Source of the DNA: a virus
Direction: 5' to 3' (one strand)
Length of the DNA: 64,000 nt
Virus record (IMG/VR): IMGVR_UViG_3300010885_055964
Span: 114,027 to 178,026 of that record
The notes below the pieces were generated by a model. It was given only the letters and a program-made list of their open reading frames with translations, was not told where the DNA came from and did not search any database. Position 1 is the stretch's first letter; every line of letters begins with the position of its first letter. Positions 2,853 through 64,000 of this stretch are shown in pieces. Made by a program: the position numbers and the translations under genes.

Positions 2853-5800
2853 ATGGCAGTCGATCCGAATGTATATGCGCTGTCTCTACAGCTGCAATTA
2901 GATTCTGCAGAAGCATTCGCTTCTTTAGATAGTTTTGGTAAAGCTGCTAACGATATGGAGCAGCAGGTATCCAAAGCTGCGCAGGGTGTTATTAACACCA
3001 TATCTAATAATATAGATGATATGGCCATGAAATTATCTCAGGTGGCCGCGTCCGGTAATGAAGGATTTGATTCGGCCAGTACCACTTTAGATTCGTTGTC
3101 TGCCAAGTTCATAAGCATGGCCCAGAGTGGGGCGGCTAGTTTGGATGATATAAATGAGCGACTTAAAGTGCTTAGTGATATAGATCAATTATCAGATAAG
3201 ACTGAAAAACATATGAAATTGGAGAAGAAATACTCTGATGACATGCTAAAGTTTTATGCTAAATTGCAAAAGGATATAACTAATAAGAATAAGTTACATC
3301 AATCAGAAAATACATTGGTCGGCGACGAGGGCGAGTTATTACGTGAAAATGGGGATATTATCGGCAAAAACACAAGAAAAATAGATTTAGCTAATCAAGC
3401 ATACAAAGCGATTGAGCAGCAAGTAACAGCTTTGAAAGCTGCGATCGTAGCGATTGATAGTGAAGCTGAAAATTTTGTGCAGACTAATTATAGGGCCTAT
3501 GGTTCACAATATGGCTTGTTACAGAATGCGATGATGCTATCTGGTGAATATGGTGCATTGCGTAAGACCACCATCGAAGCATATAAAGCACTCGCTAATG
3601 TACGGACCCCGAAAGAAGAGATAGATGGTCTGGCAGGAATAATATCTCAGGCTAATCGTTACACAGGTGTATCAGCTGAGACAATGGCTGAGTACACTCT
3701 GCGTTTGAGACAGGCTGGTCTGAGTGGTACTCAAACTACGCAGCAGATCAAGCTAATGACGTCGGCTATGCGTGTGTACGGACTAACAACGGCTGATGTA
3801 AATGGTCTGATGAATACTAGTGCTACATCAGCATTAGCCTTAGGCGAAATGTTTGGCGGGATCGATACAGATAAAGTGGAGGAAAGCAGGTTAGTATTTG
3901 CTGGTATGGCAAAGCAAATAGGGGTCAGCACAGCAGAAGCGGCCAAATTCTTCGAAACAATGGCTACTGATGCAATGGCCATGCAGATGTTCGGCGCTTA
4001 CGCTGATATGCAGATAAACAGCGCAGAAGATCTACAGCAAGCCATGGTTAAAGCAGGCGTGAAGACTCATGAAAGTATGGCTGAATTAAAAGCTGACTTG
4101 GCTGCTGGAGATATTGGGCAGGCAGAATTTAATATTAGAAGACGACAAATGATAGATCTATATTATGCAGGCAACGAGGCTGCATTTAGAGCTTCGATGG
4201 AACTAGGAAAAGAGGCTAAACAATTAGGATTAACAGGTGAAGCTGCATCTGATTATGGTGATATAGCTAAAAAATTAAGAAAAGATGCGATAGACCCTTG
4301 GAGCGAATCGAATAGGACTTTGACAGCTCAGTTAAGATTATTATATAACACACTACATGGTTTGATCGGACCAGTTATAGTCAGCATATCCGAAGGATTA
4401 ATGTATCTAATGATGGCAGTCAATGCAGTTATTATACCTATATTAAGGTTTATCGTAGGTCTAGGTGAGCTGTGGGCCGCGATGGAGAAATGGCCTATTA
4501 TAGGATATTTATTCTCTACCATAAGAATAGGTTTCTCCATTTTGTTGGGGTTAGTAGGTGTGCTGGCTATGGCTGGCTTATCGTTAATCACATTTGCATC
4601 ATTATTCGCAGGTGCTACTAATATAGTTAGAGGAGCATTAAATATAATTCGTTATGTGGGTAGAGCCATAATAGAAGTAGCACAGGCTTTAGGGCAGGGC
4701 ATAGCTGCCATATTATCCGGCATAGGACAAGGGCTGGCAGCATTGGGAACCGCAGTACGGCCTGTAATAGTGCCGTTGTTGCAATTATGTTTTGCGGTGC
4801 TGCTGGTAGGTGCTGGCTTTTACATGATGGGCCTTGGTATGGCCGCTGCAGCCCAACATGGATGGGCAGCAGTTGGTATGCTGGCAGCTATGACTGTCGC
4901 TATAATCACACTAATGGTGGCATTCGCATTAATAGCAGCAGTTGCTGCGCCTGTCATACCTTTAATGATTAGCCTATCAATAGTGGCACTAACATTAGGT
5001 GCTGCAGTAATGCTCGCTGGTCTGGGCATGTACATGATGGGGATGGCTGTTGAGAGCATAGCTAACTATGGACTACAAGCAGCAGCAGCGATACCAGCAT
5101 TGGCACTTGGATTGCTAGCGTTAGGAGGAGTTGGTTATGTGGCTTCGTTAGGAATATTGGCACTAGCTGCGGCGATGTTGGCTTTAGCCATACCAGTCTT
5201 GTTGATTGGTGTAGGATTATCACTGCTATCAGCAGCTATAGATTCTATCCAAGTTGATAACTTGGCGCCAATGGCTGAGGCCCTGCTTGAATCAGCTTAC
5301 TATTTCATACAAGCTGGTTTATTATTGATACCTGCTGCAGTAATGTTAATAGTTGGCTCTGCAGGAATACTAATAGCATCAGCAATATTAGCAGCAGCTG
5401 GAGCTGCTGTAGCAATTGCTGTGCCAGTGGTAGCAGTGGCAGGAGCTGCTTTAGTAGTGGCTGCTGCGTTGTTGCTAGCTGGTTCGGTGATGGTGTTTAT
5501 TTCTGGATTAATGTTGTCGGTGGGTTCAACAATGTTGTTAGCTGGGGCCGCCATATTAACACCTGCTTCGTCTTTGATAATTGCCTCTGCTTTTATTATA
5601 GGCGCGGCTGGTTATGCTTTATCAGCTGCTGTTGGGCCGTTGTTAATAGGTGCCACTGCATTATTCACAGCTGCAGCATTGGTATTAGCGTCCGGAGGTT
5701 CAATACTGGTAGGGGCATCAATGCTATTGAGGGGTGCTAATATATTATCGACAGCATCTGAAGCATTGTTAAACGCATCAACACAGGCGATGTCTGCCGC

Positions 5801-7664
5801 ATCTATGCTATCAGATGCAATGATCATACTGCTACCAGCATCTTTAAAGACCGTAGTATCAGGGGCCTTGTTGTTAATAGGTGCTGGCTTGATATTGGGT
5901 GCTTCAATCGCATTATCGATATCTGCTCTAGCATTGGCAGCGGTCGGTACTTTAGTAATTATAGCTGCAGCATCAATTCTATATGCTTCTGTAGCATTGT
6001 CGATAGCGGCTGTGGCGTTAACAGTAGCAGCAGCCTTAATGATATCCGGTTCTGGTATAATGTATATGGCTGCTATTACTTATTTGATAGCTTCTGAAGC
6101 TTTACTATCAGCGGCTAATAAACTGGTTCCAGCAGCTGAACAATTATATTTAGCTGCTACTAATTTATTACCTGCTGCAGCGATGTTGTTGGTATCTGCA
6201 TTCTTGATGTTATCTTCTATCCCAGCATTCGTGACCGCATCCATCGGTTATTTAGTAGCATCTTCTATCTTGTACTTAGCATCTAGCATTTTGTCTGAAG
6301 CATCGATCATGCTTTATGCAGCTGCTGAGAATATATTGCCCGCATCAGCTATGTTAGCTGCAGCAAGCGGATTTCTGTTGGTTGGGGCAAACATTATATT
6401 CTTAGCTGCTCCAATATTATTGATTGGTTCAGGCATATTATTGATCGCATCTTTGGTGTTGCTACCAGCTTCGATAGTGCTGGGCTTAGCCTCGAGTATA
6501 CTATTACCCGCCTCCACCATGCTGTTCATTTCCAGCATATACTTGTTATTAGGGGCAACTGCACTATTAACTGGGTCGACTATACTAATAACAGGTGCTG
6601 CTATATTAGCAGTAGCCTCAGTTGCTTTACTATTCACTTTACCAATAATCATGTCGGCAGCAGTCGGCATAGTCGTAGCTGCATCAGTGTTACTAGTCGG
6701 GTCGACATTGTTAATTGCGGGTGCTATGTTATTGGCCGTTGCCTCAATAGTAATGCTGTCTGGTGCGACGACTATGTTTATGGCGAGTGCTATTCTTTTA
6801 ATAGCTAGCCCTCTTTTGATTATGGCATCTAGCGGCATGCTGATAGGTGCCTACATTTTAATCTCTTCTTCATTGGTATTGGTGAGTGGTGCAGTGGCTT
6901 TAATGGCCGCATCTTTGATCATGCTACCAGCAGCACTGATTCTTTATTTTGCATTGTCGATAGTGTCTAGTGCGACGTCTAGATTCAAGCAATCCATTTC
7001 TGACATTGGCATAATGGGTAACGGGCTTAGGATGATGGCTCAGTCATTTACTGCACTGTCAAATTTATCGTTGCGAGGATTTAGTAAGACCATAGACGAT
7101 GCACTATCGGCGATGCCAGGCATAAAAAAGCTAGCCACTGAACTATCATCCTCAGCTGATTTGTTACAGAATGCTGCTGATAAATTCACAAAACCTGTTG
7201 ATCAAATATCTGAGAGTTTACAGCGACTTGGTACCACACTGGCTAGTGTTGGTAACCAAGGTCTCACAGTGCAAGCTGACATGGATAAAGTCAGCGCTCT
7301 ATTAGATGAATACTCCACGCTATTAGAAGGCGCAGCACAACGGATAGAGATAGCTGTGGCTACAAAGGCTCAGCCTGCTATGGCTACAGCTCGAGATGAA
7401 GGTCTGGAACAGACAGTAAGATCCGAAGCGATTAATACAGTACAGGTAATGGATAAGAGAGAAGGAAGCGCAGAATCGAATGATATGTCTTACGAAACTA
7501 GTATGTCTCAAATAGAAATACTAAAAAGCATAAATGAAAAGATGGATAATATGGGCAATACAGCAGATGTAAAAGAAATAATATCCATATTGATGGGTTA
7601 TTTGCCTAATTTAGGCACAGGGTCGGAAGGTTTAACGACTGAATTTAACTCTTGGCTAAAATAA
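2853..7664 (+). CDS. tail tape measure protein
   Basis: 1603 aa, Ala/Leu-rich and predicted all-helical, with a long repetitive hydrophobic core. AAGGAG RBS. Directly upstream of baseplate genes. Confidence 0.85.
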   Translation: MAVDPNVYALSLQLQLDSAEAFASLDSFGKAANDMEQQVSKAAQGVINTISNNIDDMAMKLSQVAASGNEGFDSASTTLDSLSAKFISMAQSGAASLDDINERLKVLSDIDQLSDKTEKHMKLEKKYSDDMLKFYAKLQKDITNKNKLHQSENTLVGDEGELLRENGDIIGKNTRKIDLANQAYKAIEQQVTALKAAIVAIDSEAENFVQTNYRAYGSQYGLLQNAMMLSGEYGALRKTTIEAYKALANVRTPKEEIDGLAGIISQANRYTGVSAETMAEYTLRLRQAGLSGTQTTQQIKLMTSAMRVYGLTTADVNGLMNTSATSALALGEMFGGIDTDKVEESRLVFAGMAKQIGVSTAEAAKFFETMATDAMAMQMFGAYADMQINSAEDLQQAMVKAGVKTHESMAELKADLAAGDIGQAEFNIRRRQMIDLYYAGNEAAFRASMELGKEAKQLGLTGEAASDYGDIAKKLRKDAIDPWSESNRTLTAQLRLLYNTLHGLIGPVIVSISEGLMYLMMAVNAVIIPILRFIVGLGELWAAMEKWPIIGYLFSTIRIGFSILLGLVGVLAMAGLSLITFASLFAGATNIVRGALNIIRYVGRAIIEVAQALGQGIAAILSGIGQGLAALGTAVRPVIVPLLQLCFAVLLVGAGFYMMGLGMAAAAQHGWAAVGMLAAMTVAIITLMVAFALIAAVAAPVIPLMISLSIVALTLGAAVMLAGLGMYMMGMAVESIANYGLQAAAAIPALALGLLALGGVGYVASLGILALAAAMLALAIPVLLIGVGLSLLSAAIDSIQVDNLAPMAEALLESAYYFIQAGLLLIPAAVMLIVGSAGILIASAILAAAGAAVAIAVPVVAVAGAALVVAAALLLAGSVMVFISGLMLSVGSTMLLAGAAILTPASSLIIASAFIIGAAGYALSAAVGPLLIGATALFTAAALVLASGGSILVGASMLLRGANILSTASEALLNASTQAMSAASMLSDAMIILLPASLKTVVSGALLLIGAGLILGASIALSISALALAAVGTLVIIAAASILYASVALSIAAVALTVAAALMISGSGIMYMAAITYLIASEALLSAANKLVPAAEQLYLAATNLLPAAAMLLVSAFLMLSSIPAFVTASIGYLVASSILYLASSILSEASIMLYAAAENILPASAMLAAASGFLLVGANIIFLAAPILLIGSGILLIASLVLLPASIVLGLASSILLPASTMLFISSIYLLLGATALLTGSTILITGAAILAVASVALLFTLPIIMSAAVGIVVAASVLLVGSTLLIAGAMLLAVASIVMLSGATTMFMASAILLIASPLLIMASSGMLIGAYILISSSLVLVSGAVALMAASLIMLPAALILYFALSIVSSATSRFKQSISDIGIMGNGLRMMAQSFTALSNLSLRGFSKTIDDALSAMPGIKKLATELSSSADLLQNAADKFTKPVDQISESLQRLGTTLASVGNQGLTVQADMDKVSALLDEYSTLLEGAAQRIEIAVATKAQPAMATARDEGLEQTVRSEAINTVQVMDKREGSAESNDMSYETSMSQIEILKSINEKMDNMGNTADVKEIISILMGYLPNLGTGSEGLTTEFNSWLK
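5262..6962 (+). repeat. 81 consecutive in-register hydrophobic heptads within the tape measure
   Basis: Residues 804-1370 parse as 7-mers (LAPMAEA ... LLPAAAM, YLVASSI, LLPASIV, LLVGSTL ... LYFALSI). The register was checked from coordinates: 804+80x7=1364. Confidence 0.85.
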
Positions 7665-30269: not shown

Positions 30270-33215
30270 ATGGCTCAGAATCAGAATCCAACGGCTAGCC
30301 AATCCGTAAAAATGGATAGTCGTAAATTTCTGGGAGCTTTGAACGATTCAGCTCAGGCTCGTATCACATACTTCGAGGACAAGATCGCTAGCATGGGCCA
30401 GCATGCCGGTAAGAATTACCGGCTGGTAGCTCTACATGCTAAAAACTTATACTTTGAGGATATCGACGCCAACAATTTCTATGTGGCTGACCACATAAGA
30501 GATAAGGGTAACAAGGTATCAATTTCTAATATCCGTAAGGTGGACATCGTCGAAGAAGAGAAAGCTTCTCTCTTCGGTGAGTCATGTCTCAAGTTAATCA
30601 ATGCCATCGAAGAGAATGATCAGAAGGGCATGGGAGCGGCATTCAATAGAATGAGTGCCCAACGGTTTTCTAGCCGGGTAGTTCCCTTTTCTGGTATGGT
30701 TAAAGGTAGAGACAATGTTACTCGTAAGATTACGATCTCGAGCAACACGAACTTAAGCGAAGATATTAGACATAAATTGATAAGCACCATAGTCGAGAGT
30801 CTCCGAGATAAGGTGATCGTGGAAAATGGCCAGATAGTAGCAGGCCAGTTTGTAGATGGTGAGGCATTTAAGCTGCCAGTTACCAAATGGGCATCTCGTA
30901 AGCTAGTCGCTCGCAGAATGCGTGAGACAGCCCAGAATGCATATTGGTCAGAGGGCTTTCAAAAGAGGGTCTCTCATTGCGCAAGATTGGTAGCAGAAGG
31001 TAAGATTCAGGATGCCGTAAAATCGGTAACTACTTTCTTGAGCGAGAACGAAGAGTTTACGTTACTCAGACGTGATCAAGTACAGACGTTGATAGAGAAC
31101 GCTCTCGCTACCAAAGCGGTGTTTAATGACCAATTGGCGACTGACACAGCCACGCTATTCTACAGAACCAATATGCGTTTAAGTCGCCATAAGATTATCG
31201 ACGAGTGGAGAAACATAGCAAGAAAGGCAGAGCATCCTGTCTTAGCAGAAAACGTGCACATACTCGAGTCTGCCTCGAATTTCGAGCCGGCTTACGATAA
31301 GTTCTTGACCCTTATCTTTGAGGCATTCAGCAACAAAGATGTGGCTGCTTCGGCTCTAGCGACGACTCTTACCACGTTGATGGACAAGACTCCAAAGATC
31401 AAGGAGTCAAATGAGCTTTCCAGTAAGCTCAATGGTCTTATCAGTCGTCTGTCTGGTAAGGATTGCGATGATGCAGCGATTTATGAAGCTGAGGATTTAA
31501 TAGCGACAATCCAAGAGGAATTGTCTGCTGCTGATTCGCTTAGCAATTTCGATATGATGCCTGGCGATGAGAATGATGTCTCGAGCGTACTGAACAAGGG
31601 CCAAGGCCAAGGCCAGCCAATCATTAATATCAATTCTCCACTTATCCAGATAGGTGGGCAGAGTGGTAAGAATGATCAAACTGAAGATGAAATACCGGCA
31701 CTCGATGATGATAACGACGTTGACGAGCTAAGTGCGTTATTGGGTGCAGGTGATGAAGCTCCAGCACCTGCTCCTGCCCCGGCCCCTGCCGCGAAACCAG
31801 CTGCTGCACCAGCTGCTCCTGCCGCACCAGCCGCACCAGCTGCTTCAGGTAATCCTTTCGAAAGCAAGAAGTCGCGAAAAGCCATCAATGAATCGAGACC
31901 GGTTCATTATGAGATGAGAAGAGATGGTATAGACGATGATATGCCAGAAGATGAAGACAATGTGGAAGAGAGCCGTGACCCATATGCCATAGCCAAGGGC
32001 GAATTAGACATAGCTGAAAGTGGTAGGCTGATGTCCGACTACGGGGCACCAGTTATCAATGATTCAGCAGATGTGCAGCGGATCGTAAAGATCATCAATA
32101 GACTAGCTGAAGAGCACCAGCTCGAGGGTGAGCAGTTGCAGGGTAATCTGGTGTACATGGCCGAAGCAGCAATAAAGGCTATAGGGTTGAGAATACCGGA
32201 AGGCAGAATGAACAAGGCTGTCGAGCAATGCCTAGAAATGTACGAGTCACAGTCTAAGAAGTTGCCAGACTTTATCAAGAATAAGATGAAGGATGATGAT
32301 GACTGTGATGACGAAACTGAAGAGGACATGGCTGAGGATCAGCGTAAGGGTCCCCGGATCAGGAAGAATGGTTATGCTCGTAGTGCAATAGCAGCGAGAG
32401 AACTCAAAGAATCAATCCAGTGGAATCAGACACAGTCTGACGCTTTATTGGGAGAGATGGCCGGTGTCGGGTTCATATTTGACCATGGTGGTGACTCCCA
32501 ATTGAAGCCAGTAATACTGTCTGAGGATGGGTCTGTCGAGATCCCTGTCCCAGAAGAGATTGTGGAAAGTGCTTATGCTAGTGCCGGTTTGTTAGATGGT
32601 GATGGCCGTAAGTTCGAGGGGTGGCTAAGAGGGTCATTGGAACAATTGAGGCCCATCCTTGACGATGAGGACACAGCTCTAGCCGAAGCAATGGCCACAA
32701 TCAGGACTAATCCAGACGGTTCGTTATCTGTCGAAGTCACAGACGATGTAGACGTTCAAGACGTCCCGAGTTCAGATGATCTAGACGATTCTGTCGGTAT
32801 GGCACCAGTGGATTCTGTTACCACATCGGCAGATATTGGTGATGACCTAGGCGACGATGGCGGAATGCCAGACTTTGAGAAATTTGGTGGAGATTCTGAA
32901 GACGAGTCAGAAGATGAATCTGATGAATCTGATGATATGGAATCGGATGAATCTGATGATACGGAATCAGAAGATGATTCAGAGGATGGCTCCGATGAGG
33001 ATGAAGATGAGGACGGGATGTTCGAAGACAAGGACATCACTGACCCTAAGAACTCCAAGTACGCTAAGCATGTCAAGGAAGACCCTCGAGACATGCCAAC
33101 TCCAAAGATGACCAAAGATAGCGATGATAAGTTAGATGGCATCGGACCAGACGTAAAAAAGGATGATGGCACTGGCACCAAGCCACCCACAGCTAGACCG
33201 ATGAGCAAACAGTGA
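30270..33215 (+). CDS. large prohead core / internal head protein
   Basis: 981 aa between portal and prohead protease; Pro-Ala linker, Asp/Glu tracts and many hydrophobic-x-Glu sites. Confidence 0.6.
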   Translation: MAQNQNPTASQSVKMDSRKFLGALNDSAQARITYFEDKIASMGQHAGKNYRLVALHAKNLYFEDIDANNFYVADHIRDKGNKVSISNIRKVDIVEEEKASLFGESCLKLINAIEENDQKGMGAAFNRMSAQRFSSRVVPFSGMVKGRDNVTRKITISSNTNLSEDIRHKLISTIVESLRDKVIVENGQIVAGQFVDGEAFKLPVTKWASRKLVARRMRETAQNAYWSEGFQKRVSHCARLVAEGKIQDAVKSVTTFLSENEEFTLLRRDQVQTLIENALATKAVFNDQLATDTATLFYRTNMRLSRHKIIDEWRNIARKAEHPVLAENVHILESASNFEPAYDKFLTLIFEAFSNKDVAASALATTLTTLMDKTPKIKESNELSSKLNGLISRLSGKDCDDAAIYEAEDLIATIQEELSAADSLSNFDMMPGDENDVSSVLNKGQGQGQPIININSPLIQIGGQSGKNDQTEDEIPALDDDNDVDELSALLGAGDEAPAPAPAPAPAAKPAAAPAAPAAPAAPAASGNPFESKKSRKAINESRPVHYEMRRDGIDDDMPEDEDNVEESRDPYAIAKGELDIAESGRLMSDYGAPVINDSADVQRIVKIINRLAEEHQLEGEQLQGNLVYMAEAAIKAIGLRIPEGRMNKAVEQCLEMYESQSKKLPDFIKNKMKDDDDCDDETEEDMAEDQRKGPRIRKNGYARSAIAARELKESIQWNQTQSDALLGEMAGVGFIFDHGGDSQLKPVILSEDGSVEIPVPEEIVESAYASAGLLDGDGRKFEGWLRGSLEQLRPILDDEDTALAEAMATIRTNPDGSLSVEVTDDVDVQDVPSSDDLDDSVGMAPVDSVTTSADIGDDLGDDGGMPDFEKFGGDSEDESEDESDESDDMESDESDDTESEDDSEDGSDEDEDEDGMFEDKDITDPKNSKYAKHVKEDPRDMPTPKMTKDSDDKLDGIGPDVKKDDGTGTKPPTARPMSKQ

Positions 33216-33964
33216 TAATGGAGGCTGTGATGATACCAACTAGAAAACGAGTCGCCGACATAATGCGTGCTTCTAATTTTGACAGAAGAGTGATAGCAGA
33301 GACTGGTGTTCTGCCGGTTGGCTCCAAGTTGATAAGAGACACTTTTGCATTCGATGTCATAGACAAGAAAGAAGTAGTTATTGAGGGCAAGAATGGGTCG
33401 GAGATACCTGCGATGCGGGTGTCTGGTCTGATACAGATGGGCGATCGTGAAAATGCGAATGGTAGACTATACTCTACTGCTGAGGTTTTAAGGCCAGCAG
33501 TTCAGAATATACAGGAAGATATTCAGTCCAGGGCTGTGATGGGTGAATATGATCATCCAGCAGACGCCAAAATACATCTAGATAGAGTCAGTCATTTGAT
33601 GACTAAGGTATGGATGGACGGCAGAAAGGTGTATGGCGAGGCAGAGATATTATACAACCTGCCGTGTGGTGCTTGCTTGCGTGGACTATTCGAACATAAA
33701 GTCAGAGTTGGCATATCATCACGCGGTGTAGGCGATATGGAAGTAGTTGAGAGTTCTGGTAAAGAACTATACCGCGTAATGCCAGGATACAACTTTGTCA
33801 CATGGGATGCTGTTGCCGAACCTTCAGTAAATGGGGCAATACTTAATATTCAAGAGGGATTAGCACGTAAGATAAAGCCATTGAGCAATAATAAACATAA
33901 ATTTAATCCTGAATTATATCAGGGTATATTAGTTAAAGAAATAAACAAATATTTTGGTCTGTAA
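33212..33964 (+). CDS. prohead core protease (T4 gp21-like)
   Basis: ENANGRLY, MGEYDHP, RVSHLMT, VGISSRGVG, VTWDAVAEPS. Confidence 0.92.
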   Translation: MIMEAVMIPTRKRVADIMRASNFDRRVIAETGVLPVGSKLIRDTFAFDVIDKKEVVIEGKNGSEIPAMRVSGLIQMGDRENANGRLYSTAEVLRPAVQNIQEDIQSRAVMGEYDHPADAKIHLDRVSHLMTKVWMDGRKVYGEAEILYNLPCGACLRGLFEHKVRVGISSRGVGDMEVVESSGKELYRVMPGYNFVTWDAVAEPSVNGAILNIQEGLARKIKPLSNNKHKFNPELYQGILVKEINKYFGL

Positions 33965-36840: not shown

Positions 36841-38469
36841 ATGGCACTGGCTAGAACTGGTAGAACTGGAATGAGCAGAACTGGAATGAGCAGAACTGGA
36901 ATGAGCAGAACCGGTTGGACCGGCAGACACCTACAGAACCGTATGGTTACTGAGGCTTCCGATCCCCATCGTGCATCTGTCGTGCTCGAGTCCAAGAAGA
37001 ACCAACTCGTTAAGAAGTGGTCGCCAGTTCTTAACAAGTGCCGTGAGGTTCCCAAGGCCAAGTTCGGCCTGATGGCTTCGATCCTGGAAAACCAGTACAA
37101 TGCCTGGAATCCAGGTAATCGATCGATGCTGTTAGAGGATCAGACCACCACGGCTAACATAGCAGACTTCACCCGGTTTGCTCTGCCCCTGATTCGCAAG
37201 TCGTATCCCAAGCTCATTGCTGACAATCTGGTTGGCGTTCAGCCAATGAGCCAGCCAGCAAGCTTGATCTTCTACATCAGATATCGTTATGCCCTTTCCA
37301 AGGGTCAGACGGTAGCTGGTACGCAGATCATGCGTCAGAACACCGCCCAGAGCTACTCACGCTCTAACGGTTGGGCACTCGATCCTTACTACAGCTCGCA
37401 AGAGGTTCGTGGTGAGGACGCTACGGTTGCTGGCGATTTGATGAACGTATCAGCCACCCTGGCACACCGACCAGTTCTTGCTGGTACGGTAGTGGTCGAG
37501 GTGTTTGCGAGTGAGAACGACGCAAGTCCCAACTGCGATGACGCAGTACCTTGCCTCAGAGTGGGCTTCAACAGTGCTGGCGATCCGGACGTGGTGCTAA
37601 TCGGTGACTGCACCGAGTTTACTTCGACCCTAGCAGTAAACGAGTCTGGTTCGAACTTCAATCACGCTACCGGTGCGGTTAATATCGCACTGTCGGGTGG
37701 TTCTTTCCCAGCTGGTGCTGTGGCACGGGTTAACTACGAGTACGATCTCGAGGCTAACCCTTTCCAGCCAGAAGTGACCATGAGCATCGACAGTGATAGC
37801 GTTTCGGCTATACAACGTAAGCTCAAGACCAGCTGGAGCTTGGAGGCGGCTCAGGATCTTAAGGCTGTTCACAACATCGATGCCGAGAGCACTCTCACCG
37901 ACCTTATGGCCGATGAGATGGTCGCGGAACTCGATCGTGAAATCATCAATGACTTGATCATTGCTGCAGCTATCCGTGCTGAGCACAACTTCGCGACCGC
38001 AGCCGGTGCTTCGGTTAACTTCACAGACCGCAACATCGCTCTGATGTACAAGGCTCTGGAAGTTGCCAACATCATCCACCGTACCACTCTCCGTGGTCCG
38101 GCTAACTGGATGGTGATGAGTGCTGACCTCTGCAGCAAGTTCGAGCAGTTGAACGATTTCCGTGCCAGTGATGCTTTCAGCACCGAGGGTGTTGACATCG
38201 GCATCATGAACGTCGGGACTGTTCAGGGCAAGATGAAGATCTACAAGGATCCACTCTTCCCAAGCTGCAAGATCCTTCTAGGGTTCAAGGGTAGCAGCGT
38301 CCTCGACGCTGGTTACTTCTACGCTCCCTACATTCCGTTGCTAAGCACCCCGACCGTGATGGATCCCAACAGCTTCACCCCAAGCAAGGGCATCATGACC
38401 CGCTACGGGAAGAAGCTCATAGAGGACGGTGGTCTTTACTACGGTGTGATCACTGTCAGCAACCTCTGA
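36841..38469 (+). CDS. major capsid protein (T4 gp23-like)
   Basis: LVGVQPMSQPASLIFYIRYRY, RKLKTSWSLEAAQDL, EMVAELDREII, YFYAPYIPL, KGIMTRYG. Codon usage is distinct from neighbours (many C-ending codons). Confidence 0.95.
   Translation: MALARTGRTGMSRTGMSRTGMSRTGWTGRHLQNRMVTEASDPHRASVVLESKKNQLVKKWSPVLNKCREVPKAKFGLMASILENQYNAWNPGNRSMLLEDQTTTANIADFTRFALPLIRKSYPKLIADNLVGVQPMSQPASLIFYIRYRYALSKGQTVAGTQIMRQNTAQSYSRSNGWALDPYYSSQEVRGEDATVAGDLMNVSATLAHRPVLAGTVVVEVFASENDASPNCDDAVPCLRVGFNSAGDPDVVLIGDCTEFTSTLAVNESGSNFNHATGAVNIALSGGSFPAGAVARVNYEYDLEANPFQPEVTMSIDSDSVSAIQRKLKTSWSLEAAQDLKAVHNIDAESTLTDLMADEMVAELDREIINDLIIAAAIRAEHNFATAAGASVNFTDRNIALMYKALEVANIIHRTTLRGPANWMVMSADLCSKFEQLNDFRASDAFSTEGVDIGIMNVGTVQGKMKIYKDPLFPSCKILLGFKGSSVLDAGYFYAPYIPLLSTPTVMDPNSFTPSKGIMTRYGKKLIEDGGLYYGVITVSNL
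36862..36906 (+). repeat. 3 x 15-bp tandem repeat AGAACTGGAATGAGC (RTGMS) at the MCP N-terminus
   Basis: Perfect copies at 36862, 36877 and 36892; partial copies at 36853 and 36907. Confidence 0.95.
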
Positions 38470-56450: not shown

Positions 56451-56566
56451 TAGATATCCTTTGGATGTAAACTATTTTTGTGCGACGCAAATATTTTTTA
56501 GAACGTGTATGTAATGTTAATATAGGGATACATGTAACTTACATATAATTGGTATGTAAAAACGAT

Positions 56567-58147
56567 ATGTCATCTTCATTACTACCTAACGACAACGCTT
56601 CATTTTTGCCGATCACGCCTACAGATGGGCAGAGGTTCTCAGACGCGCAGGGCGTGCAATGGATTTACTGTGCACAGAAAAGAGTATGGGAAAAGAGAGG
56701 AGTAGTCGATAGTATACCGGTAGCGACAAGCACACAACCTGGCTTATTGCCCGCACGTTTGAAAAAAGTAATAGACAGAGTTCCAGCAGTGGGTGGTGGC
56801 TTCGGGATTATAGCTGATACCAAGACCATATTAAAAAGTCCTACTAATCCTAATGGTGTAATCACTGGTGATATTAAGTTAGTAAGTGAAAGCTTACGCA
56901 TCAGATGTGTAGATGCTCAGTCCAAGAAGATAACTCCTACTTGCAGCTCTATCGAGATATTAGACTGTGGTGGTGAGAACGTCACTGGTAATAGAGCCGG
57001 TCTTGAATTCTCACTAAGCACTAAATTTCTTAATACCTTATTTATAGATGCAGCAGGAGATAATGGCAAGAAAGGCGTAGATGGAGAAAAAGGCCCGACA
57101 GGCATCCCAGGATATGACTACACTGGGCCCAAAGGCAATCGTGGGTCTAAAGGTAGAGATATATCAACATTATGTCAATTAGATGGTATATTGATCAATG
57201 ACATAGAAGGTATGGCAGACAGTGCTATAGTCGACTTACAGATTAAGGACGATAATGGGCACGGATGCAAATTAATAGTAAACAAAGCCAAGCTAAATCT
57301 AGAAGGTAATCGGCCAGTCGATAAGTTAATAGCTACTAGGCTAAGCCGGACTATAGTTTATAAACCGAGTGATTTCGAGAGCTGTACTGTAAATTCTCTA
57401 GACAAGTGGCAACTTAAAAAGGCTGCTGGTGATACCACACGGCTCAATTTACAACTAGTGCGTTTCGCTAAATCACCAGAAGGAGACGTAGAAAGCCCAG
57501 CTTCATTTAATAGCACGATATCACTGAATACTTTTATTAATGGCATTGTAGCAGAATACAAGAAGAGGTTACAAAAAGTCGATAATCAATGGGGGCAGCA
57601 AGTTAGGCAGTATATTAATGAGTTAGATAACAAAGCTAGAACTATATTATCACAATTAGCTGATGACCTGACACAATGTGAGTTTGCTCTACCAGCTATC
57701 GATTATTGCATTACATTTGAGGAGTGTGGGGGACCAAACCCGCCTCCGCCTCCGACGCCTCCGCCTCCGACGCCGCCGCCTCCGACGCCGCCGCCTCCGA
57801 CTCCGCCGCCGACTCCACCTCCGGTGCCGCCTCCGGCACCTCCGGTGCCGCCTCCTGCGCCTCCGGTGCCGCCTCCTGCGCCTCCGGTGCCGCCCCCTGC
57901 ACCGCCGGTTCCGCCCCCTGCACCTCCGGTGCCGCCCCCTGCACCGCCTGTGCCGCCCCCTGCACCGCCTGTGCCGCCCCCTGCACCGCCGGTGCCGCCC
58001 CCTGCACCGCCGGTTCCGCCGCCATCTAGTCCGCAGGCACAGGCTTCGAAACGAGCCACTGATGTTAACTTACACCAACAGAACACTAGTGTACAAAATG
58101 TGACGATAATCGGTATGGGCAAGAGAAAATGGAACATCAAACTGTGA
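56567..58147 (+). CDS. fibre-like virion protein with collagen triplets and polyproline tract
   Basis: FLPITPTDG..WIY..W and AT..PGLL N-terminal fibre motifs; GDNGKKGVDGEKGPTG; (PPVPPPA)10. ATG at 56567 preferred over TTG at 56549. Confidence 0.7.
   Translation: MSSSLLPNDNASFLPITPTDGQRFSDAQGVQWIYCAQKRVWEKRGVVDSIPVATSTQPGLLPARLKKVIDRVPAVGGGFGIIADTKTILKSPTNPNGVITGDIKLVSESLRIRCVDAQSKKITPTCSSIEILDCGGENVTGNRAGLEFSLSTKFLNTLFIDAAGDNGKKGVDGEKGPTGIPGYDYTGPKGNRGSKGRDISTLCQLDGILINDIEGMADSAIVDLQIKDDNGHGCKLIVNKAKLNLEGNRPVDKLIATRLSRTIVYKPSDFESCTVNSLDKWQLKKAAGDTTRLNLQLVRFAKSPEGDVESPASFNSTISLNTFINGIVAEYKKRLQKVDNQWGQQVRQYINELDNKARTILSQLADDLTQCEFALPAIDYCITFEECGGPNPPPPPTPPPPTPPPPTPPPPTPPPTPPPVPPPAPPVPPPAPPVPPPAPPVPPPAPPVPPPAPPVPPPAPPVPPPAPPVPPPAPPVPPPAPPVPPPSSPQAQASKRATDVNLHQQNTSVQNVTIIGMGKRKWNIKL
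57740..58023 (+). repeat. GC-rich tandem repeats encoding PPPPT units then (PPVPPPA) x10
   Basis: Val codons every 21 nt from 57824 to 58013; 15-nt units upstream. Confidence 0.95.
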
Positions 58148-60135
58148 ACAACTTCCCTACTAATCCGAATCATGGTGACATATACGAATATAAGACTGGT
58201 TTATTATATCAATATGATGCTGGAGTTAATGGATGGATACCTGTAGTATCAAATAGTGCGAATATGGAGCTGGCTACACCTATCAAAAGCGGCGCTATGT
58301 CATCAGTAGACTTACATAAGTTAAATAGGCTAGTACTACCATTTCCACAAGCGACCATCATAGGCAATGATTGTGATTTTCCTTTCAGTAGGGGCAATAT
58401 AGCGATATCATCTGGAGACGATTACGTAGGAGTAGATGGACAAGTTAAGGTAAGAAACTTGGACGCTGTAGGTGATGATATAGCTAAATCGATAGACTTT
58501 CAGATACATCAACACACCTATGGGTTCGATTTCACCTTAAATCTACCCAATTTAGTTCAAGATTTAATCCAGTTAGGACAGATCAAAACACAAGGTGGAA
58601 CTGGTCCAAAAGGAGACAGGGGTGTTAAAGGTGATGATGGCATCAATTCATTGTTCGCTGGTCCTCCAGGTGACAAAGGCGAATCAGGTAACGCACCACC
58701 ATGCCAATTAAGCATAGAGACCGAGCCAGTATCAGTTAATCCAAGATATGGGTTAGATAAGGCTTTAGTAGATGTGCGCATTAAAGATCACCCTACTGAT
58801 AGATTAAAATATTACTTGGAATTCGATAGACAGTCGATAGGAGATGATAACAGAGCAGCTACTAGACTAAACGTCGATAAATTCAGTTCTTATTGGGTAG
58901 TGGCTGTTGCTAATCAAGCTGCTGGTAACAAACGAGTATATTATCTGGACGTAGAACCTATTATTAGTGCTATCAAAGACAAATACTTGGAACAAATAGA
59001 ATTACTAAGAGCAGGATATGAGAGCATAACCAAGCATTGGGTTCAAACTATGTCTGACTTATTTGATGAACAAAAGGCTGCATTGTGCTGTGCGTTAGAA
59101 AATTGTATATCTAAGACCAAGGGTGTCGACACTAGACAACATATGGAAACCACAGCTGCGGCTGTGATACCAGACGGAAAAATCAAGATAAATGTGTTCC
59201 CACCGAAAGGATCACCACAATCAGACGTCAGAGAAGTAAGCAATACTCGATTAACTCCTGGTAATGATTGTTATAAAAAGCCGACATCAAAACAAACTGC
59301 GATTAACCAAGTCGTTACGCTTGATGCCGCTGTCCATGTGGGATCAGCCAAGAATGCCAAAAAGGTTACATTACCCAAGGGTAGATATTCTGCAATAATT
59401 AGTAGTATGGGGGTAAAAATAGATGATCAATACGGAAGTCTAATCAGAATACAAAATGTGTGCAATGGATCCACCAAAATATCATCATTTTTGGATCAGG
59501 GTCGATATGATCATCTGCAAGATGCGAAAAGCGCATATGAAGGGTTGTCTCTAGTAGTAAACCATGATGGTGGTGACATTTATTTTTATCTGCCTTCTTA
59601 TCTTGCCAATAATATGAGTGGTGAGGCATCATTAGAGTTGATTCCCACATCAGTTGATGAGCCGACGGTAAATGCTTTAGTCGAGTCACAGAAACTAACA
59701 GCGTCCGAGGATAATATATTCTATTGTTCTATGACGAGTTCTCACCTTAATTGGTATAAAACGGGATGGGAGCAGGGCAACTGCTGTGGTTTGGTAATTA
59801 AGATAGCTGGCCAAGATTATATTATAATCAAAAGAGGACTGGGTACAGATGATGCGTGTGGCGGTGGCGAAGTCGCCACGACGCCATGCATAGAGAGTAG
59901 CAACCACGCATTTAAATCTCATCCATCATTCGCATGGCCCACGCTTAACGGACAAGATTTTGTTCCGATCCCATCTGGCAATATTACATTTAAGTATGAT
60001 GAGGAATTAAATATTGCTGTGAGGGAGAAGATAGGACTTGAACAATATCAGGAACCTCATGGAAATCCGAGCACTCATCGCCATTTGGCATTCCAGCTTG
60101 ATCTGATATTATTTCCGACTATAGACAATGGCTGA
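58129..60135 (+). CDS. fibre-like virion protein, paralog of the upstream gene
   Basis: FPTNPNHG..YQY..W, ATPIKSGAMSSVDLHKL, collagen GGTGPKGDRGVKGDDG, Cys-rich C-terminal domains. Confidence 0.7.
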   Translation: MEHQTVNNFPTNPNHGDIYEYKTGLLYQYDAGVNGWIPVVSNSANMELATPIKSGAMSSVDLHKLNRLVLPFPQATIIGNDCDFPFSRGNIAISSGDDYVGVDGQVKVRNLDAVGDDIAKSIDFQIHQHTYGFDFTLNLPNLVQDLIQLGQIKTQGGTGPKGDRGVKGDDGINSLFAGPPGDKGESGNAPPCQLSIETEPVSVNPRYGLDKALVDVRIKDHPTDRLKYYLEFDRQSIGDDNRAATRLNVDKFSSYWVVAVANQAAGNKRVYYLDVEPIISAIKDKYLEQIELLRAGYESITKHWVQTMSDLFDEQKAALCCALENCISKTKGVDTRQHMETTAAAVIPDGKIKINVFPPKGSPQSDVREVSNTRLTPGNDCYKKPTSKQTAINQVVTLDAAVHVGSAKNAKKVTLPKGRYSAIISSMGVKIDDQYGSLIRIQNVCNGSTKISSFLDQGRYDHLQDAKSAYEGLSLVVNHDGGDIYFYLPSYLANNMSGEASLELIPTSVDEPTVNALVESQKLTASEDNIFYCSMTSSHLNWYKTGWEQGNCCGLVIKIAGQDYIIIKRGLGTDDACGGGEVATTPCIESSNHAFKSHPSFAWPTLNGQDFVPIPSGNITFKYDEELNIAVREKIGLEQYQEPHGNPSTHRHLAFQLDLILFPTIDNG

Positions 60136-60646
60136 ATTAAAGATAGCTCAATTCTGTAGTCTGGCTACTTCCCCATCATGGCACACATGGCTATATAATT
60201 ATGATCGAGCAATATATGACCATTTCATGGTCTCGCTGAAAGAGTCTAAGGGTTGCACTTATAACCGTGAACTGATGACCTTGACGCTGGATAAGGTTAA
60301 AAAGTCGGGTGGGTATGAATTGTTAATCGATTTCATTAATGTTCACTTTCCATATATGGTAGTTGGTGATGGTTTAGGTAAGAGAGCCTCATCAAGAAAG
60401 GATATCATATTTCCTGAATATGTGGCTAATGTTTTAACATATCCGAGAAGGATAATCTTCGAAGGTGAACCAGACCAACTTAATATCAGGATACAAAGAT
60501 TCACCCACGATAAGATTAAACATGACTCGATAGTCATAGGTAATAAAGGGTATGTTGAATATCTGGTAGGGCAGGACTCTAAGATAGCTGATAAGATTCC
60601 ATTAAACAATTGGTTAATAGCGAGCTATCGCAAAAATAATATATGA
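60128..60646 (+). CDS. hypothetical protein
   Basis: 172 aa, coupled to both neighbours. Confidence 0.65.
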   Translation: MAELKIAQFCSLATSPSWHTWLYNYDRAIYDHFMVSLKESKGCTYNRELMTLTLDKVKKSGGYELLIDFINVHFPYMVVGDGLGKRASSRKDIIFPEYVANVLTYPRRIIFEGEPDQLNIRIQRFTHDKIKHDSIVIGNKGYVEYLVGQDSKIADKIPLNNWLIASYRKNNI

Positions 60647-63600
60647 GCAAGAAAAAAGCACCTAAGATGCCGAGAGTACCTGACGAAGATGGGATAGAGC
60701 GTCACGATTCTTACACCAGGGTAAATCCTCAAGGCCACAAAGAATTCGTGACGGATGAGACCGAAGAAACCCTAAATGAATTATCAGATGATATACTACG
60801 TCTACTAGAGAGTATTAGCTTTGGTGGTATGAACCAAACTGGTGGTGGAGCAGGCTCTGCCGAGCAATTGCAAACGGATAGAAGGCATAATAGATTATTA
60901 CCATCCTCGAGGGACGAAGACGAGAACAATATGACAGCGGCTGAACCATTAGCAGCTGATGATCCAGAAACATCTAGGGCCAAATCTGATATTAAGACTA
61001 GCACTATAAGAAATGAAGAATCTCCAAACAAAAATATTATAAGATGTTCATATAGTATTCTAAATGAATCAATGACCGGGACCGGGGCGATCGCCATGGT
61101 TCCTGGTCCACTGAACATTGATGATGATCTAGATGAAGACGAAGACCAAGAAGACAATCAAACGGAGAGCGTCATGATGGCAAAGAATAATGGTCTAACC
61201 AACAGCATCCAAAAGCTGCTCAATGAGTGGGAGCCCAAATTCGTTGCCGGTGAATACTCTCCAGGTGATGGTGGTGTTGAAAGCCCTAAGGGGAAGGGAA
61301 TACAGAGCGGGTCATTAAAGAAGCCAAAGGGCGGTGGTGGTGACAATGGTCTTAAGAATCATGGTGATGCATTTGGTGCTGGGCACAATGAGACAGCAGC
61401 CATGTGCGATGTAGAGGAGAACGGAGTAGAGAATAAGCCACAGGGTGATCATGAATCATCGGTTGGTAAGCCAGATGACGGCCACCAGAGCAAGATGGGG
61501 CATGATTGGCCAGCCCAGCCCAAGAATAAGGGTGGCTCCTTTGAGCCGGTTGGTGGTAACAGATATAGCAATGGCGGCACACTGGGTAGCGTTAAAGAGG
61601 GGTGGTCCCCAGCTAAGATCGGTTCTTTAATGGATGAGGAAGTGAACATCCAGGATCTATTCAACGCATACGCCAAGAGTGTTGATGTAGTGTGCGTTGA
61701 GGACTTCCAGAATATTTGTAACTCTCACGGATTTGCCACCAGATTAACTGAAAAGAATCTAGTGTCGCTAATGTCTATAAATGAAGAGTTTCTATTTTAT
61801 CATGGCGAGGATGCCAACGGCCCATATTGGCAGGTGACTCCATTAGCTAAGAGGCCTTTATCTGAGTTTCAGGTCAGATCTCCGGAAGAGGAAATGATCG
61901 GAGCCGATCCAGATTTTGTCAACGATCATTTAGACAGTAACGATGAGATTGGTGATGATGATTTGCCAGACGATGAGCATGCAGAAGGTGAATATGATGA
62001 TGGTGAAGGCCGATTTGGTGGTGATGGCTGCCCTGAATGTGGTGCTTTCTGTGGTAACGAGATGAGCTGCCCTGAGTGTGGTTGCGAAGTGAACATGGAC
62101 TCTGGTGAGGAAGCCACATTTGGTGGATCCAAGGCATATATTAAGGATATTGGCCCGACAACTCACGATATCGGGCCTTGGGACGATTTTATGGGTGATC
62201 AACGCATAGTTGATCGTGACCCAGCCAGCGATGATGGAAGGATGATGGAGTCGAGAAAGGCGAATCGTAGAGGTGTGTTGCACTTAGAGAATTCTAATAG
62301 TGGCTCTCGAGTCGTATTTTATGTGAAGGAGAATTCTCCTTTAGCTTTAGACCATGATGGTCAACTCGGAGTTGAATTCACTAATCTTATTGAGAGAGCC
62401 GTTGGCTCCGTGGAATGGAGCAATGATGCATTATCGTTTAATCTGCCTCTAGTTAATGGAATGGTGCCGTCAGGCGAGGATGATGCATTTCTTCAGCTAG
62501 TGAACCAAATCAAGGCAGGCAGACATGGAAGAGAGATGCAGTTAGCGTTGAATTCGTTAGAGAATCCGGGTAGTGTTGAAGGTCAACGACCTGGTGATGA
62601 TGAATACTGGCTAGAATACCCTGAGCGGCACGGCCATAAACCTATGGTGGATGAACATGGTCAAGAGTGGATGGTTGGATACGGTGATCAAAATGATGAT
62701 CCAGCTCTTGAGTCTAGATTACATAGATTCTTAACCAATGCTAAGAACATCCTCGAGTCTTCTGCCTCGCGTACTCCATCTCAATTAGCAAAGAGGAAGG
62801 TAGGGCAGGCATTGGCTCGCTCTTGGAGATTGCACGCTGAGGGTGTCGATTTGAGAAATGTGCCACGTGGTGTCCGCAATGTCATTGGTGGTTTGACGCG
62901 TAGGTTTGGTGCTTTCGCGAATGCTATCTCGGAAAGTGAATTGGGTTCTGGTGGGTTTAAACCAGACAAGCTAGATGAGCAACCCACTCCAGAAGACGGC
63001 AAGGATTTGGGTGAGCCATTCGGCAAGAAGCAGACTAACAATCTAGATGGCACACCAGTTATTGCTGGCACAGCCAAAGGTTTGAGTGGCAAATCGACTG
63101 GTAAGATTTCTGCTGCTCTCAAAGAGAATATAGTTAAGCTAAATCGTCATGTTCGGCGTCATTTGCACGAATGTGTCAAAAGTCTACGTGGTAAGCACTC
63201 GTGTGAATTTCAGATTCAGGTGACTGAGGGTAAGTCAGTCAATCTCACGCCGGTCAGAAGGGCTTTGTCTGAAGCTTTGGCTGATGCTGAAGAGATCCTG
63301 CAATATCATGATTCAAAGGATGTGGACCTCAAGGCTAGCTTCAAAGATGCCCGTGGTGAAGTGGTATTAGTTCATGATGTGCCATTACTGACGATTAATC
63401 CTAGAGGGCTAGTAGCTTCTGAAGGAGCAGTGCTTTTCAGATTTAAGAGGAATGCTGAGAGATTCGCTAATAAGGTAGTCGCAGAAGGTAAGACTTGTAA
63501 GGTTGTGCCTCATAGCTGGGGTACAGCTGTGATGGAGTCAAGAAAGGCGAATCGTAGAGGTGTGTACTTAGAGAATATGGGTGGAGCACGTGCTAGCGAT

Positions 63601-64000
63601 ATCGCAAATACGCTCATGAACGCGATAGACAACGCTGACCCAATGGCCATAAGCGGCCCAAACGGTTTGCAGCTATCGTGTGGTCCTTTTGATGAGTACC
63701 CAGATCTGACTGTAGTATTACATGGCGGGCGAGGGCAGCCTCTTTACGTTTCTGTGACTAAAGAGGGTGACAGTGAGACATTCTTAGCCGACGAATCTGG
63801 GGTAAGCCAAGCCGCTGAGTTCATAGTCTCTGTGATGGAGTCAAGAAAGGCGAATCGTAGAGGTGTGTTGCACTTAGAGAATTCTAATAGTGGCTCTCGT
63901 GTCACATTCTTTGTGAAGGAGAATTCTCCTTTAGCTTTAGACCATGATGGTCAACTCGGAGTTGAATTCACTAATCTTATTGAAAGAGCTGTTGGCTCCG
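60643..64000 (+). CDS. large modular acidic protein / putative head polyprotein (3' truncated; absent from ORF track)
   Basis: I translated frame 1 from the ATG at 60643 to the window end (1119 codons) and found no stop. Contains CPECG..CPECG and three MESRKANRRGV copies. Confidence 0.88.
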   Translation, partial: MSKKKAPKMPRVPDEDGIERHDSYTRVNPQGHKEFVTDETEETLNELSDDILRLLESISFGGMNQTGGGAGSAEQLQTDRRHNRLLPSSRDEDENNMTAAEPLAADDPETSRAKSDIKTSTIRNEESPNKNIIRCSYSILNESMTGTGAIAMVPGPLNIDDDLDEDEDQEDNQTESVMMAKNNGLTNSIQKLLNEWEPKFVAGEYSPGDGGVESPKGKGIQSGSLKKPKGGGGDNGLKNHGDAFGAGHNETAAMCDVEENGVENKPQGDHESSVGKPDDGHQSKMGHDWPAQPKNKGGSFEPVGGNRYSNGGTLGSVKEGWSPAKIGSLMDEEVNIQDLFNAYAKSVDVVCVEDFQNICNSHGFATRLTEKNLVSLMSINEEFLFYHGEDANGPYWQVTPLAKRPLSEFQVRSPEEEMIGADPDFVNDHLDSNDEIGDDDLPDDEHAEGEYDDGEGRFGGDGCPECGAFCGNEMSCPECGCEVNMDSGEEATFGGSKAYIKDIGPTTHDIGPWDDFMGDQRIVDRDPASDDGRMMESRKANRRGVLHLENSNSGSRVVFYVKENSPLALDHDGQLGVEFTNLIERAVGSVEWSNDALSFNLPLVNGMVPSGEDDAFLQLVNQIKAGRHGREMQLALNSLENPGSVEGQRPGDDEYWLEYPERHGHKPMVDEHGQEWMVGYGDQNDDPALESRLHRFLTNAKNILESSASRTPSQLAKRKVGQALARSWRLHAEGVDLRNVPRGVRNVIGGLTRRFGAFANAISESELGSGGFKPDKLDEQPTPEDGKDLGEPFGKKQTNNLDGTPVIAGTAKGLSGKSTGKISAALKENIVKLNRHVRRHLHECVKSLRGKHSCEFQIQVTEGKSVNLTPVRRALSEALADAEEILQYHDSKDVDLKASFKDARGEVVLVHDVPLLTINPRGLVASEGAVLFRFKRNAERFANKVVAEGKTCKVVPHSWGTAVMESRKANRRGVYLENMGGARASDIANTLMNAIDNADPMAISGPNGLQLSCGPFDEYPDLTVVLHGGRGQPLYVSVTKEGDSETFLADESGVSQAAEFIVSVMESRKANRRGVLHLENSNSGSRVTFFVKENSPLALDHDGQLGVEFTNLIERAVGS
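62244..62410 (+). repeat. dispersed in-frame repeat, copy 1 (leader-only copy at about 63531-63576; long copy at 63834-64000)
   Basis: Copy 1 versus copy 3: 8 mismatches in 167 nt, cut off by the window end. Copy 2 shares only the MESRKANRRGV(Y)LEN leader. Confidence 0.95.

Follow-up and report, generated by a model that had tools for sequence, protein, structure and literature searches.

In-frame modules behind a repeated double-Glu linker in a large protein of a T4-like jumbo phage: a candidate cargo polyprotein

The end of a 64,000-nucleotide stretch of viral DNA (hereafter the window; positions 114,027 to 178,026 of IMG/VR record IMGVR_UViG_3300010885_055964) is occupied by a large open reading frame, here called ORF 60643, in which a 16-residue linker, MESRKANRRGV(LH/Y)LEN, recurs in three in-frame copies (leaders 1, 2 and 3; Table 1). 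Judged by homology, the ORF belongs to a protein family present in about 50 related T4-like jumbo phages, and the small modules fused behind the linker vary even between close relatives. The boldest reading considered here is that of an expandable cargo polyprotein, in which captured small-gene cargoes would sit behind a cleavable linker on a prohead-internal carrier, be released by the S77 prohead protease and be delivered together with the DNA, the linker DNA serving as the recombination site. In this complete form the proposal is tentative and falls short of an even chance; the narrower reading that it contains and that is favoured here, according to which a late protein of this family would be cut by the S77 prohead protease and its modules would lie in the head, is about evenly balanced between right and wrong.

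The 32-nt core of the leader occurs in the window at 62245, 63532 and 63835 only, always on the plus strand and in frame, where no occurrence is expected by chance, so that the three positions named in an earlier reading of the letters alone (the sequence-only reading) are borne out. A six-frame search of the whole 178-kb contig that tolerated up to three substitutions yielded no fourth copy, and neither IMG/VR nor the JGI metagenome contigs contain the DNA pattern elsewhere. The N-terminus of the ORF (MSKKKAPK...) carries no leader and all three copies are internal. In the AlphaFold 2 model, leaders 1 and 2 fall in predicted disordered linkers of low predicted local distance difference test (pLDDT) score that lie beside compact domains.

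Compared with the four closest homologues (P0002-P0005, 56-69% identity), leader 1 and the module behind it (module A; together aa 534-690) form a clean insertion, which lies in the variable stretch that links the zinc ribbons to the conserved C-terminal block (C-block) of the family. Module A has no homologues among proteins shorter than 615 aa. Leader 3 runs into the start of a second copy of the same domain (module A'), as the sequence-only reading had noticed: positions 62243-62410 and 63833-64000 are 95% identical over 168 nt, with eight differences, five of which are synonymous, and only two amino-acid changes in 55 codons. Leader 2, also as described there, leads into an unrelated module (module B), for which a small alpha/beta domain is predicted with pLDDT 70-85. 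An exhaustive HMMER search with aa 961-1119 returned only two proteins, P0031 and P0032 (84 and 88 aa), which are about 50% identical to module B and are encoded by free-standing genes, each set in a dense array of same-strand genes for 46-114 aa on a GC-rich contig. Because of these free-standing relatives, and because module B has its own ATG directly after the LEN of the leader, this module looks like a captured small gene of free-standing origin. One of the contigs with such an array (L006:1-4170, and similarly L009) has a GC content of 62-67% and contains 13 same-strand genes of 46-114 aa, including the free-standing relative of module B; almost every gene of L006 is headed by a repeated intergenic element, TTGAC...CTCGCCACAGG...GTCGCCCC.ACCCC..GGAG, resembling the promoter/stem-loop cassettes of the promoter early stem-loop (PeSL) type. 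A homologue of the large protein (L025) derives from the same assembly (JACCDJ01) as the small-gene contig of a module B relative. The sole domain-level structural lead for the whole-protein model, which would make module B YkuJ-like (2ffg, Z 7.6), is below the trusted level and was discarded, and no function is assigned to the module from it.

The region behind the core of the protein, which in this clade ends in WGTAV, is where every close relative differs: five of them, the window included, have five different arrangements. In the window, WGTAV is followed by a leader, module B, a further leader and then A' onward. P0002 (locus L003; second leader and what follows at 4275-4569) continues with a leader, a different module of 85 aa and a second leader, after which the frame stops within 16 residues; a gene for 127 aa in the +1 frame begins with an ATG taken from the AAT-GAG codons at the leader end, an overlap that is also found in contigs from other samples and that could reflect either separate translation or a frameshift site. 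In P0005 (L004) a diverged leader, VMAESAFRKSL, precedes an unrelated 130-aa module ending in ...REMESLRKYIP-stop. P0003 (L031:3560-3902, 70% identity) has what looks like a collapsed leader (AVMLNEMGEK-stop, WGTAVMLNEMGEK-TAA) with a 94-aa ORF behind it in the same frame, and P0004 (L032) merely stops. Since the L003 layout is present on contigs from several samples, the succession of core, leader, module and leader is not an artefact of one assembly. The window and L003 have the leader subtypes GRMMES and (A/S)VMES in common. The comparison of relatives that the sequence-only reading had called for thus finds module content anything but invariant, and its proposal that the leader is the site at which modules are gained, duplicated and swapped is upheld by the clean insertion of module A, the five arrangements, the free-standing relatives of module B and the layout of L003. 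At the DNA level, residues that are identical between the window and L003 use the same codon in 18 of 24 cases within the leaders and in 50% of cases elsewhere in the gene (P ~0.01), which suggests homogenisation of, or selection on, the leader DNA and fits recombination at the leader, in what is a small sample.

The carrier of these modules is a widespread protein. Searches of metagenomes recovered 29 protein homologues of 823-1254 aa, with E values reaching 0 and best local alignments at 33-71% identity, together with 21 more loci, some on contigs of 205-388 kb. All homologues have two blocks in common, corresponding to residues 1 to about 500 and about 685-963 of the query. The features that mark members of the family are present in ORF 60643, i.e., GTGAIA, NETxAMCDV and CPECG in the N-terminal block (N-block) and a C-block ending FRFxRxAE...HNWGxAV. 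The CPECG motif occurs twice (aa 463-467 and 476-480) and is accompanied by acidic tracts, both as reported in the sequence-only reading; the N-block furthermore contains a small helical domain (aa ~332-388) and the candidate protease sites LLE-S (E56) and LNE-S (E142), where the hyphen after Glu marks the putative cleavage position here and below. The C-block was modelled by AlphaFold with the family alignment as a helical part and an alpha/beta domain (pLDDT 78.5). Most relatives end 3-70 residues past HNWGxAV, in many cases with a short tail, AKTxxxIAE-SAF(R/K)xL, followed by basic residues. No relative longer than 1959 aa was found, which is weak evidence, and an identical protein is absent from the record of other assemblies.

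The sequence-only reading had pointed to two Glu sites flanking a short basic peptide in the leaders of the window, and this pattern extends through the family, in which double-Glu basic motifs are located at block junctions in the divergent members P0010, P0015, P0022, P0024, P0025 and G001. P0010 contains TE-SRRNNRRTINE-N and SE-SRRRRHRAINE-A, P0015 ME-SRRRTRRRIVE-G, P0022 NE-SRSRRGRTLNE-Y, P0024 TE-NRRGNRRTINE-L, and G001 has EMSE-SRRQRTGIIE-S directly before the C-block. Leader 2 occupies the position that in distant relatives is taken by the tail IAE-SAFRxL with its basic residues, or by the stop. By these comparisons the leader is an old family motif, built of hydrophobic-x-E-S, an Arg-rich peptide and hydrophobic-x-E, that has been redeployed as a module linker in the clade of the window.

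The protease that would act on such sites is encoded in the same window, next to the head genes of what, from its portal, Peptidase_S77 protease and Gp23-family capsid protein, is classed as a T4-like jumbo phage; the closest capsid protein in GenBank, from an uncultured phage of 595 kb, is 37% identical. Prohead proteases of T4-type and giant phages cut after Glu at short motifs, and core and ejection proteins are processed by them at several sites (PMC5694885, PMC7411985). The first site of the leaders, VME-S or MME-S, fits hydrophobic-x-E and, on sequence alone, resembles a junction in the major capsid protein. This protein carries a 50-aa N-terminal extension (36841-36990) that contains tandem MSRTG/RTG repeats, is absent from RB16 gp23 and ends in VVLE-S, exactly where homology to residue 2 of RB16 gp23 begins; a good AGGAG precedes its start codon at 36841, and MLLE-D (E99) is the sequence that aligns with the canonical maturation site. 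Sites of the hydrophobic-L-E type are thus present at positions where cutting would be expected, as exemplified by VVLE-S of the extension and MLLE-D of the canonical site. VLE-S as the capsid maturation site was considered and rejected, as it represents the junction of the extension with the canonical gp23 precursor.

The sequence-only reading had counted about 20 additional gp21-type sites in the rest of the protein. There are in fact 28 [LIVM]xE sites against 19.6 +/- 3.7 in shuffled sequences, a weak excess over chance (z ~2.3). A more discriminating picture was obtained by scanning every ORF of the contig (n = 187) for [LIVMA]-x-E-S against residue shuffles, in which only two ORFs are strong outliers: ORF 60643 (9 versus 2.0 expected), whose own enrichment is partly circular because the motif was picked after inspecting it, and a 981-aa ORF between the portal and protease genes (9 versus 2.1 expected; P ~0.0005), which constitutes the independent check. 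Without the duplicate leaders, ORF 60643 still has 8 sites versus 1.9 expected. The 981-aa ORF matches no protein family, several of its nine sites have the form xxE-SR, and it occupies the position at which T4 carries genes 67 and 68 of the core; it probably represents a core protein of the prohead that is processed at multiple sites. The scan was repeated on the genome G001 (354 kb, 98% complete, 421 ORFs), whose family homologue is about 40% identical in the C-block, and the top three ORFs include this homologue (6 versus 0.96 expected) and the orthologue of the 981-aa ORF (6 versus 1.8). Because the motif singles out the same two orthologues in two genomes, processing by the S77 prohead protease is plausible, at about even odds, with the family protein as its probable substrate, cut at several hydrophobic-x-E-S sites. 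Over 30 family members 127 sites are found versus 43.8 expected, counts that are not independent since the sites are partly shared by descent; among those that recur, LLE-SISF lies near residue 55, IME-SLHN or ALE-SRLH marks the start of the C-block, and the tail has IAE-SAFR or VME-SRKA. The third of the top ORFs of G001 (C1:92707-93129, plus strand, 140 aa; 4 sites versus 0.22 expected) is regarded as a chance hit, and its orthologue in the genome of the window lies at ~127449-127865 of the contig on the minus strand.

Table 1. Positions of the features discussed (window coordinates; aa, residues of ORF 60643)
Feature	Position	Strand	Remarks
981-aa ORF	30270..33215	+	located between portal and S77 protease; serves as internal reference for probable substrates of the protease
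Prohead protease (Peptidase_S77, gp21 type)	33212..33964	+	proposed processing enzyme; E = 1.7e-15
Major capsid protein (Gp23 family)	36841..38469	+	E = 2.1e-77
Candidate late-promoter motif CAAAAATA	60631..60638	+	4 nt before ATG, within end of upstream gene
ORF 60643 (truncated)	60643..64000	+	1119 codons, no stop; runs past contig end
N-block, aa 1-533	60643..62241	+	pI (isoelectric point) 4.4; mostly predicted disordered; conserved short motifs
Double CPECG zinc-ribbon motif, aa 463-480	62029..62082	+	conserved in family
Leader 1, aa 534-550, MMESRKANRRGVLHLEN	62242..62292	+	subtype GRMMES
Module A, aa 551-690	62293..62712	+	acidic; ends ...DDPALE-S
C-block, aa 691-963	62713..63531	+	pI 9.9; ends HSWGTAV; most conserved part of family
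Leader 2, aa 964-978, MESRKANRRGVYLEN	63532..63576	+	subtype AVMES
Module B, aa 979-1064 (86 residues)	63577..63834	+	own in-frame ATG right after LEN
Leader 3, aa 1065-1080	63835..63882	+	subtype SVMES; shares 39 identical nt with leader 2
Module A' (start of second module A copy)	63883..64000	+	cut by contig end

In the proposed model, cutting of the family protein by the prohead protease would make it a prohead-internal and possibly ejected protein. In the sub-clade of the window, the junction and tail motif of the family, with its Arg-rich peptide of about ten residues, would have been reused as a portable linker, and behind each copy of it a small accessory domain would have been fused in frame: module A within the central disordered linker, and at least module B and the second copy of A at the C-terminus. 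At least one of these domains would trace back to a family of small phage genes that stand free. Recombination at the linker of about 45 bp would add, duplicate and exchange modules, with the consequence that every close relative differs, and the protease would, after assembly, free each module, which may then act once injected.

Several observations weigh against this model. In addition to the partial circularity of the motif, the enrichment of ORF 60643 shrinks to 4 sites versus 1.3 expected (P = 0.04) when all leaders and modules are removed, and the assignment of the 981-aa ORF as a head protein is by synteny only. At the second site of the leader (HLE-N or YLE-N), the P3 residue fits the T4 consensus poorly. 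The gene is located outside the head module, ~22-27 kb from the head genes, and searches by Pfam, PHROG, PDB sequence and fold revealed no similarity to any known head or ejection protein. Fusion of the modules is not obligatory, as the third module of L003 is in the +1 frame and the next module of L031 lies behind a stop. Extra modules are confined to the immediate clade of the window, and some 45 relatives lack cassettes altogether, from which it follows that the core has a function of its own. The operon in which the gene resides also counts: ORF 60643 closes a series of four translationally coupled genes, a synteny kept in relatives, and the first two carry short collagen-like Gly-X-Y stretches and weak matches to tail-fibre PHROGs.

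This operon is the starting point of the most serious alternative, in which the product is a variable multidomain protein that is never cleaved, either a fibre-associated structural protein or a non-virion protein, and in which the leader is a flexible basic linker and recombination hot spot behind which the modules act while attached. Besides the two collagen-repeat neighbours and the missing resemblance to head proteins, the model of the whole protein is compatible with it, as more than half of the chain is predicted to be disordered (602 of 1119 residues with pLDDT <50), and phage adhesins commonly have C-terminal ends that vary (PMC3157838). This alternative leaves unexplained, however, why hydrophobic-x-E-S pairs the ORF with a portal-adjacent ORF in two genomes and why block junctions throughout the family repeatedly carry double-Glu basic motifs. 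Moreover, no fibre-like repeat or fold is seen in the ORF: it has no fibre match in PHROG or Pfam, its AlphaFold 2 model contains no fibre-like domain and fold searches gave no clear match. An uncleaved protein is for these reasons considered unlikely, though it deserves to be kept in view.

A different objection concerns the 3' end of the window. The frame stays open from its ATG to the last base, and since the window and its source contig (IMG/VR record G000:C1; 178,026 bp, linear, ~49% complete) end at the same base, the gene is truncated by the assembly; the long ORF announced as hidden by the sequence-only reading is indeed open throughout, but it is cut by assembly rather than hidden. 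The break falls within the second copy of the 168-nt repeat, a typical break point of assemblies, and leader 3 and A' touch the contig end. They could accordingly be an assembly artefact (63833-64000), in which a strain variant of 62243-62410 was joined through the shared leader, a reading supported by the 39 nt common to leaders 2 and 3 and by an exact stretch of ~57 nt common to copies 1 and 3. These features count against the second A copy as part of the model. Yet the end of module B runs in frame into leader 3, the eight mostly synonymous differences between the copies are what diverged paralogues would show, and L003 independently has a second leader after its C-terminal module. An artefact is thus improbable, and even if it were true, leaders 1 and 2 with modules A and B would remain.

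Least well supported is the idea that the modules are separate small genes with their own starts, bounded by the leader as a gene-boundary element, the long frame being incidental or the result of a recent loss of stops. The ATG of module B directly after LEN, with GAGGTG 14 nt upstream, agrees with this, as do the same-frame TAA ahead of the next module in L031, the +1-frame ATG that L003 draws from the last codons of its leader, and the arrays of free-standing module B relatives with their repeated intergenic element, which are organised as PeSL cassettes are (PMC2839356). It is nevertheless judged quite improbable, because three leaders are traversed without a stop over 1119 codons with the same fusion in L003, because amino-acid changes in leaders preserve their basic character (MESNKKKRRGV, MESKKVNRRGV), because module A lacks a start codon after LEN, and because the leaders show no significant RNA structure (folding z-scores 0.5, -2.0 and -0.9) and a Shine-Dalgarno-like spacing that is poor compared with the real starts of the genome. 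An internal Shine-Dalgarno sequence and start for each cassette was also considered as such and found unconvincing against those real starts.

The cargo polyprotein model has close precedents, and the statement of the sequence-only reading that no such arrangement had been described is too strong. T4's internal proteins (IPI to IPIII) and Alt carry a short conserved capsid targeting sequence (CTS) leader with a prohead-protease site after Glu in front of otherwise unrelated small proteins (PMC7411985, PMC3012670). The phage of the window likewise encodes a gp21-type (S77) protease and a gp23-type capsid protein. In T4, however, the cargoes are separate genes with an N-terminal CTS, whereas the leaders of the window are internal and in frame on a large conserved carrier, and they are basic, unrelated to the CTS in sequence and known here from sequence alone. 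In SPN3US, the ejection paralogues gp53 and gp54 (phiKZ gp93-type) start with an identical 15-residue N-terminal leader containing two tandem cleavage motifs (AXE-12 and SXE-15) (PMC5694885). This leader resembles that of the window in being short, shared and equipped with two Glu sites; the SPN3US proteins differ from ORF 60643 in being encoded by separate genes, in their long propeptides, in the absence of sequence similarity and in the motif, which is A/S-x-E and not hydrophobic-x-E-S.

A second group of precedents concerns modularity. The polyvalent proteins of phages and conjugative elements (Iyer et al. 2017) are large polypeptides made of several unrelated modules that are predicted to travel with the DNA and, in some cases, to be freed by peptidases, and they have a mosaic domain content (PMC5512222). 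The family of the window is similarly mosaic, with as many arrangements as close relatives. It differs in that the hub domains of polyvalent proteins (zincin-like metallopeptidase (MPTase), MuF, ParB, ADP-ribosyltransferase (ART) and others) were not detected in the ORF or its modules with Pfam and PHROG, in the tiny size of the modules and in the proposed release by a separate prohead protease at a repeated linker. In T4-type phages, small accessory genes are bounded by PeSLs, conserved motifs of ~40-50 bp that are thought to mediate modular exchange (PMC2839356, PMC4122927), and the free-standing relatives of module B reside in an array of this kind; PeSLs are, however, intergenic promoter-terminator elements, whereas the boundary in the window is translated, in frame and devoid of significant RNA structure. 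The window thus differs from each of these systems yet overlaps them in concept, and the arrangement is therefore best regarded as a variant rather than as something categorically new.

Polymorphic toxins (e.g., CdiA with its VENN motif, Rhs and MuF proteins) also consist of a conserved body, a short demarcation motif and C-terminal modules that differ between close relatives. ORF 60643 has the same three elements. Unlike these toxins, it contains no recognisable toxin or immunity domains, and its modules stand in tandem in one frame, each behind a motif copy of its own.

Should the linker be cleaved and the modules packaged, the system would be a natural counterpart, in polyprotein form, of the engineered CTS cargo system of T4, and it would illustrate a way for giant phages to gain further injected accessory proteins that requires neither new promoters nor new targeting signals. 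The modules, chiefly module B, are candidate early-acting proteins for host takeover or counter-defence. The analysis also defines a widespread and so far unannotated protein family of jumbo phages, and it offers hydrophobic-x-E-S as a testable candidate cleavage motif of the prohead protease for this clade, pointing to at least two likely substrates.

No informative Pfam or PHROG match was obtained for the ORF, its modules, the modules of relatives or the neighbouring genes, phmmer against PDB sequences gave no match for the ORF, and tblastn against 50,697 deposited phages gave none for either the ORF or the 981-aa ORF. The C-block model has no significant match in Foldseek searches of PDB or BFVD and only generic helical ones (Z <=7) in a VIA-wide search, and ESM Atlas provided no usable match. 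In the three distant relatives L028, L029 and L030 (at ~6400-6800 in each), a CPxCG...CYGCG zinc-ribbon pair is present in a C-terminal extension of ~130 aa after HNWGxAV.

As regards expression, the motif CAAAAATA just ahead of the ORF is a candidate late promoter. Copies of CAAAWATA are located within 60 nt upstream of a same-strand start in 17 of 37 cases on the contig, the scaffold gene included, and together with the position of CAAAAATA this placement gives tentative support to late expression of the protein. If a motif of this type is the late promoter, transcripts would be leaderless or almost so. The spacing of 4-5 nt between a CAAAAATA-type motif and the start recurs at several other genes of the contig. 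The three coupled genes upstream of ORF 60643 (56549-60646, plus strand) encode proteins of 532, 668 and 172 aa, and their order is kept in L004, L005, L032 and G001.

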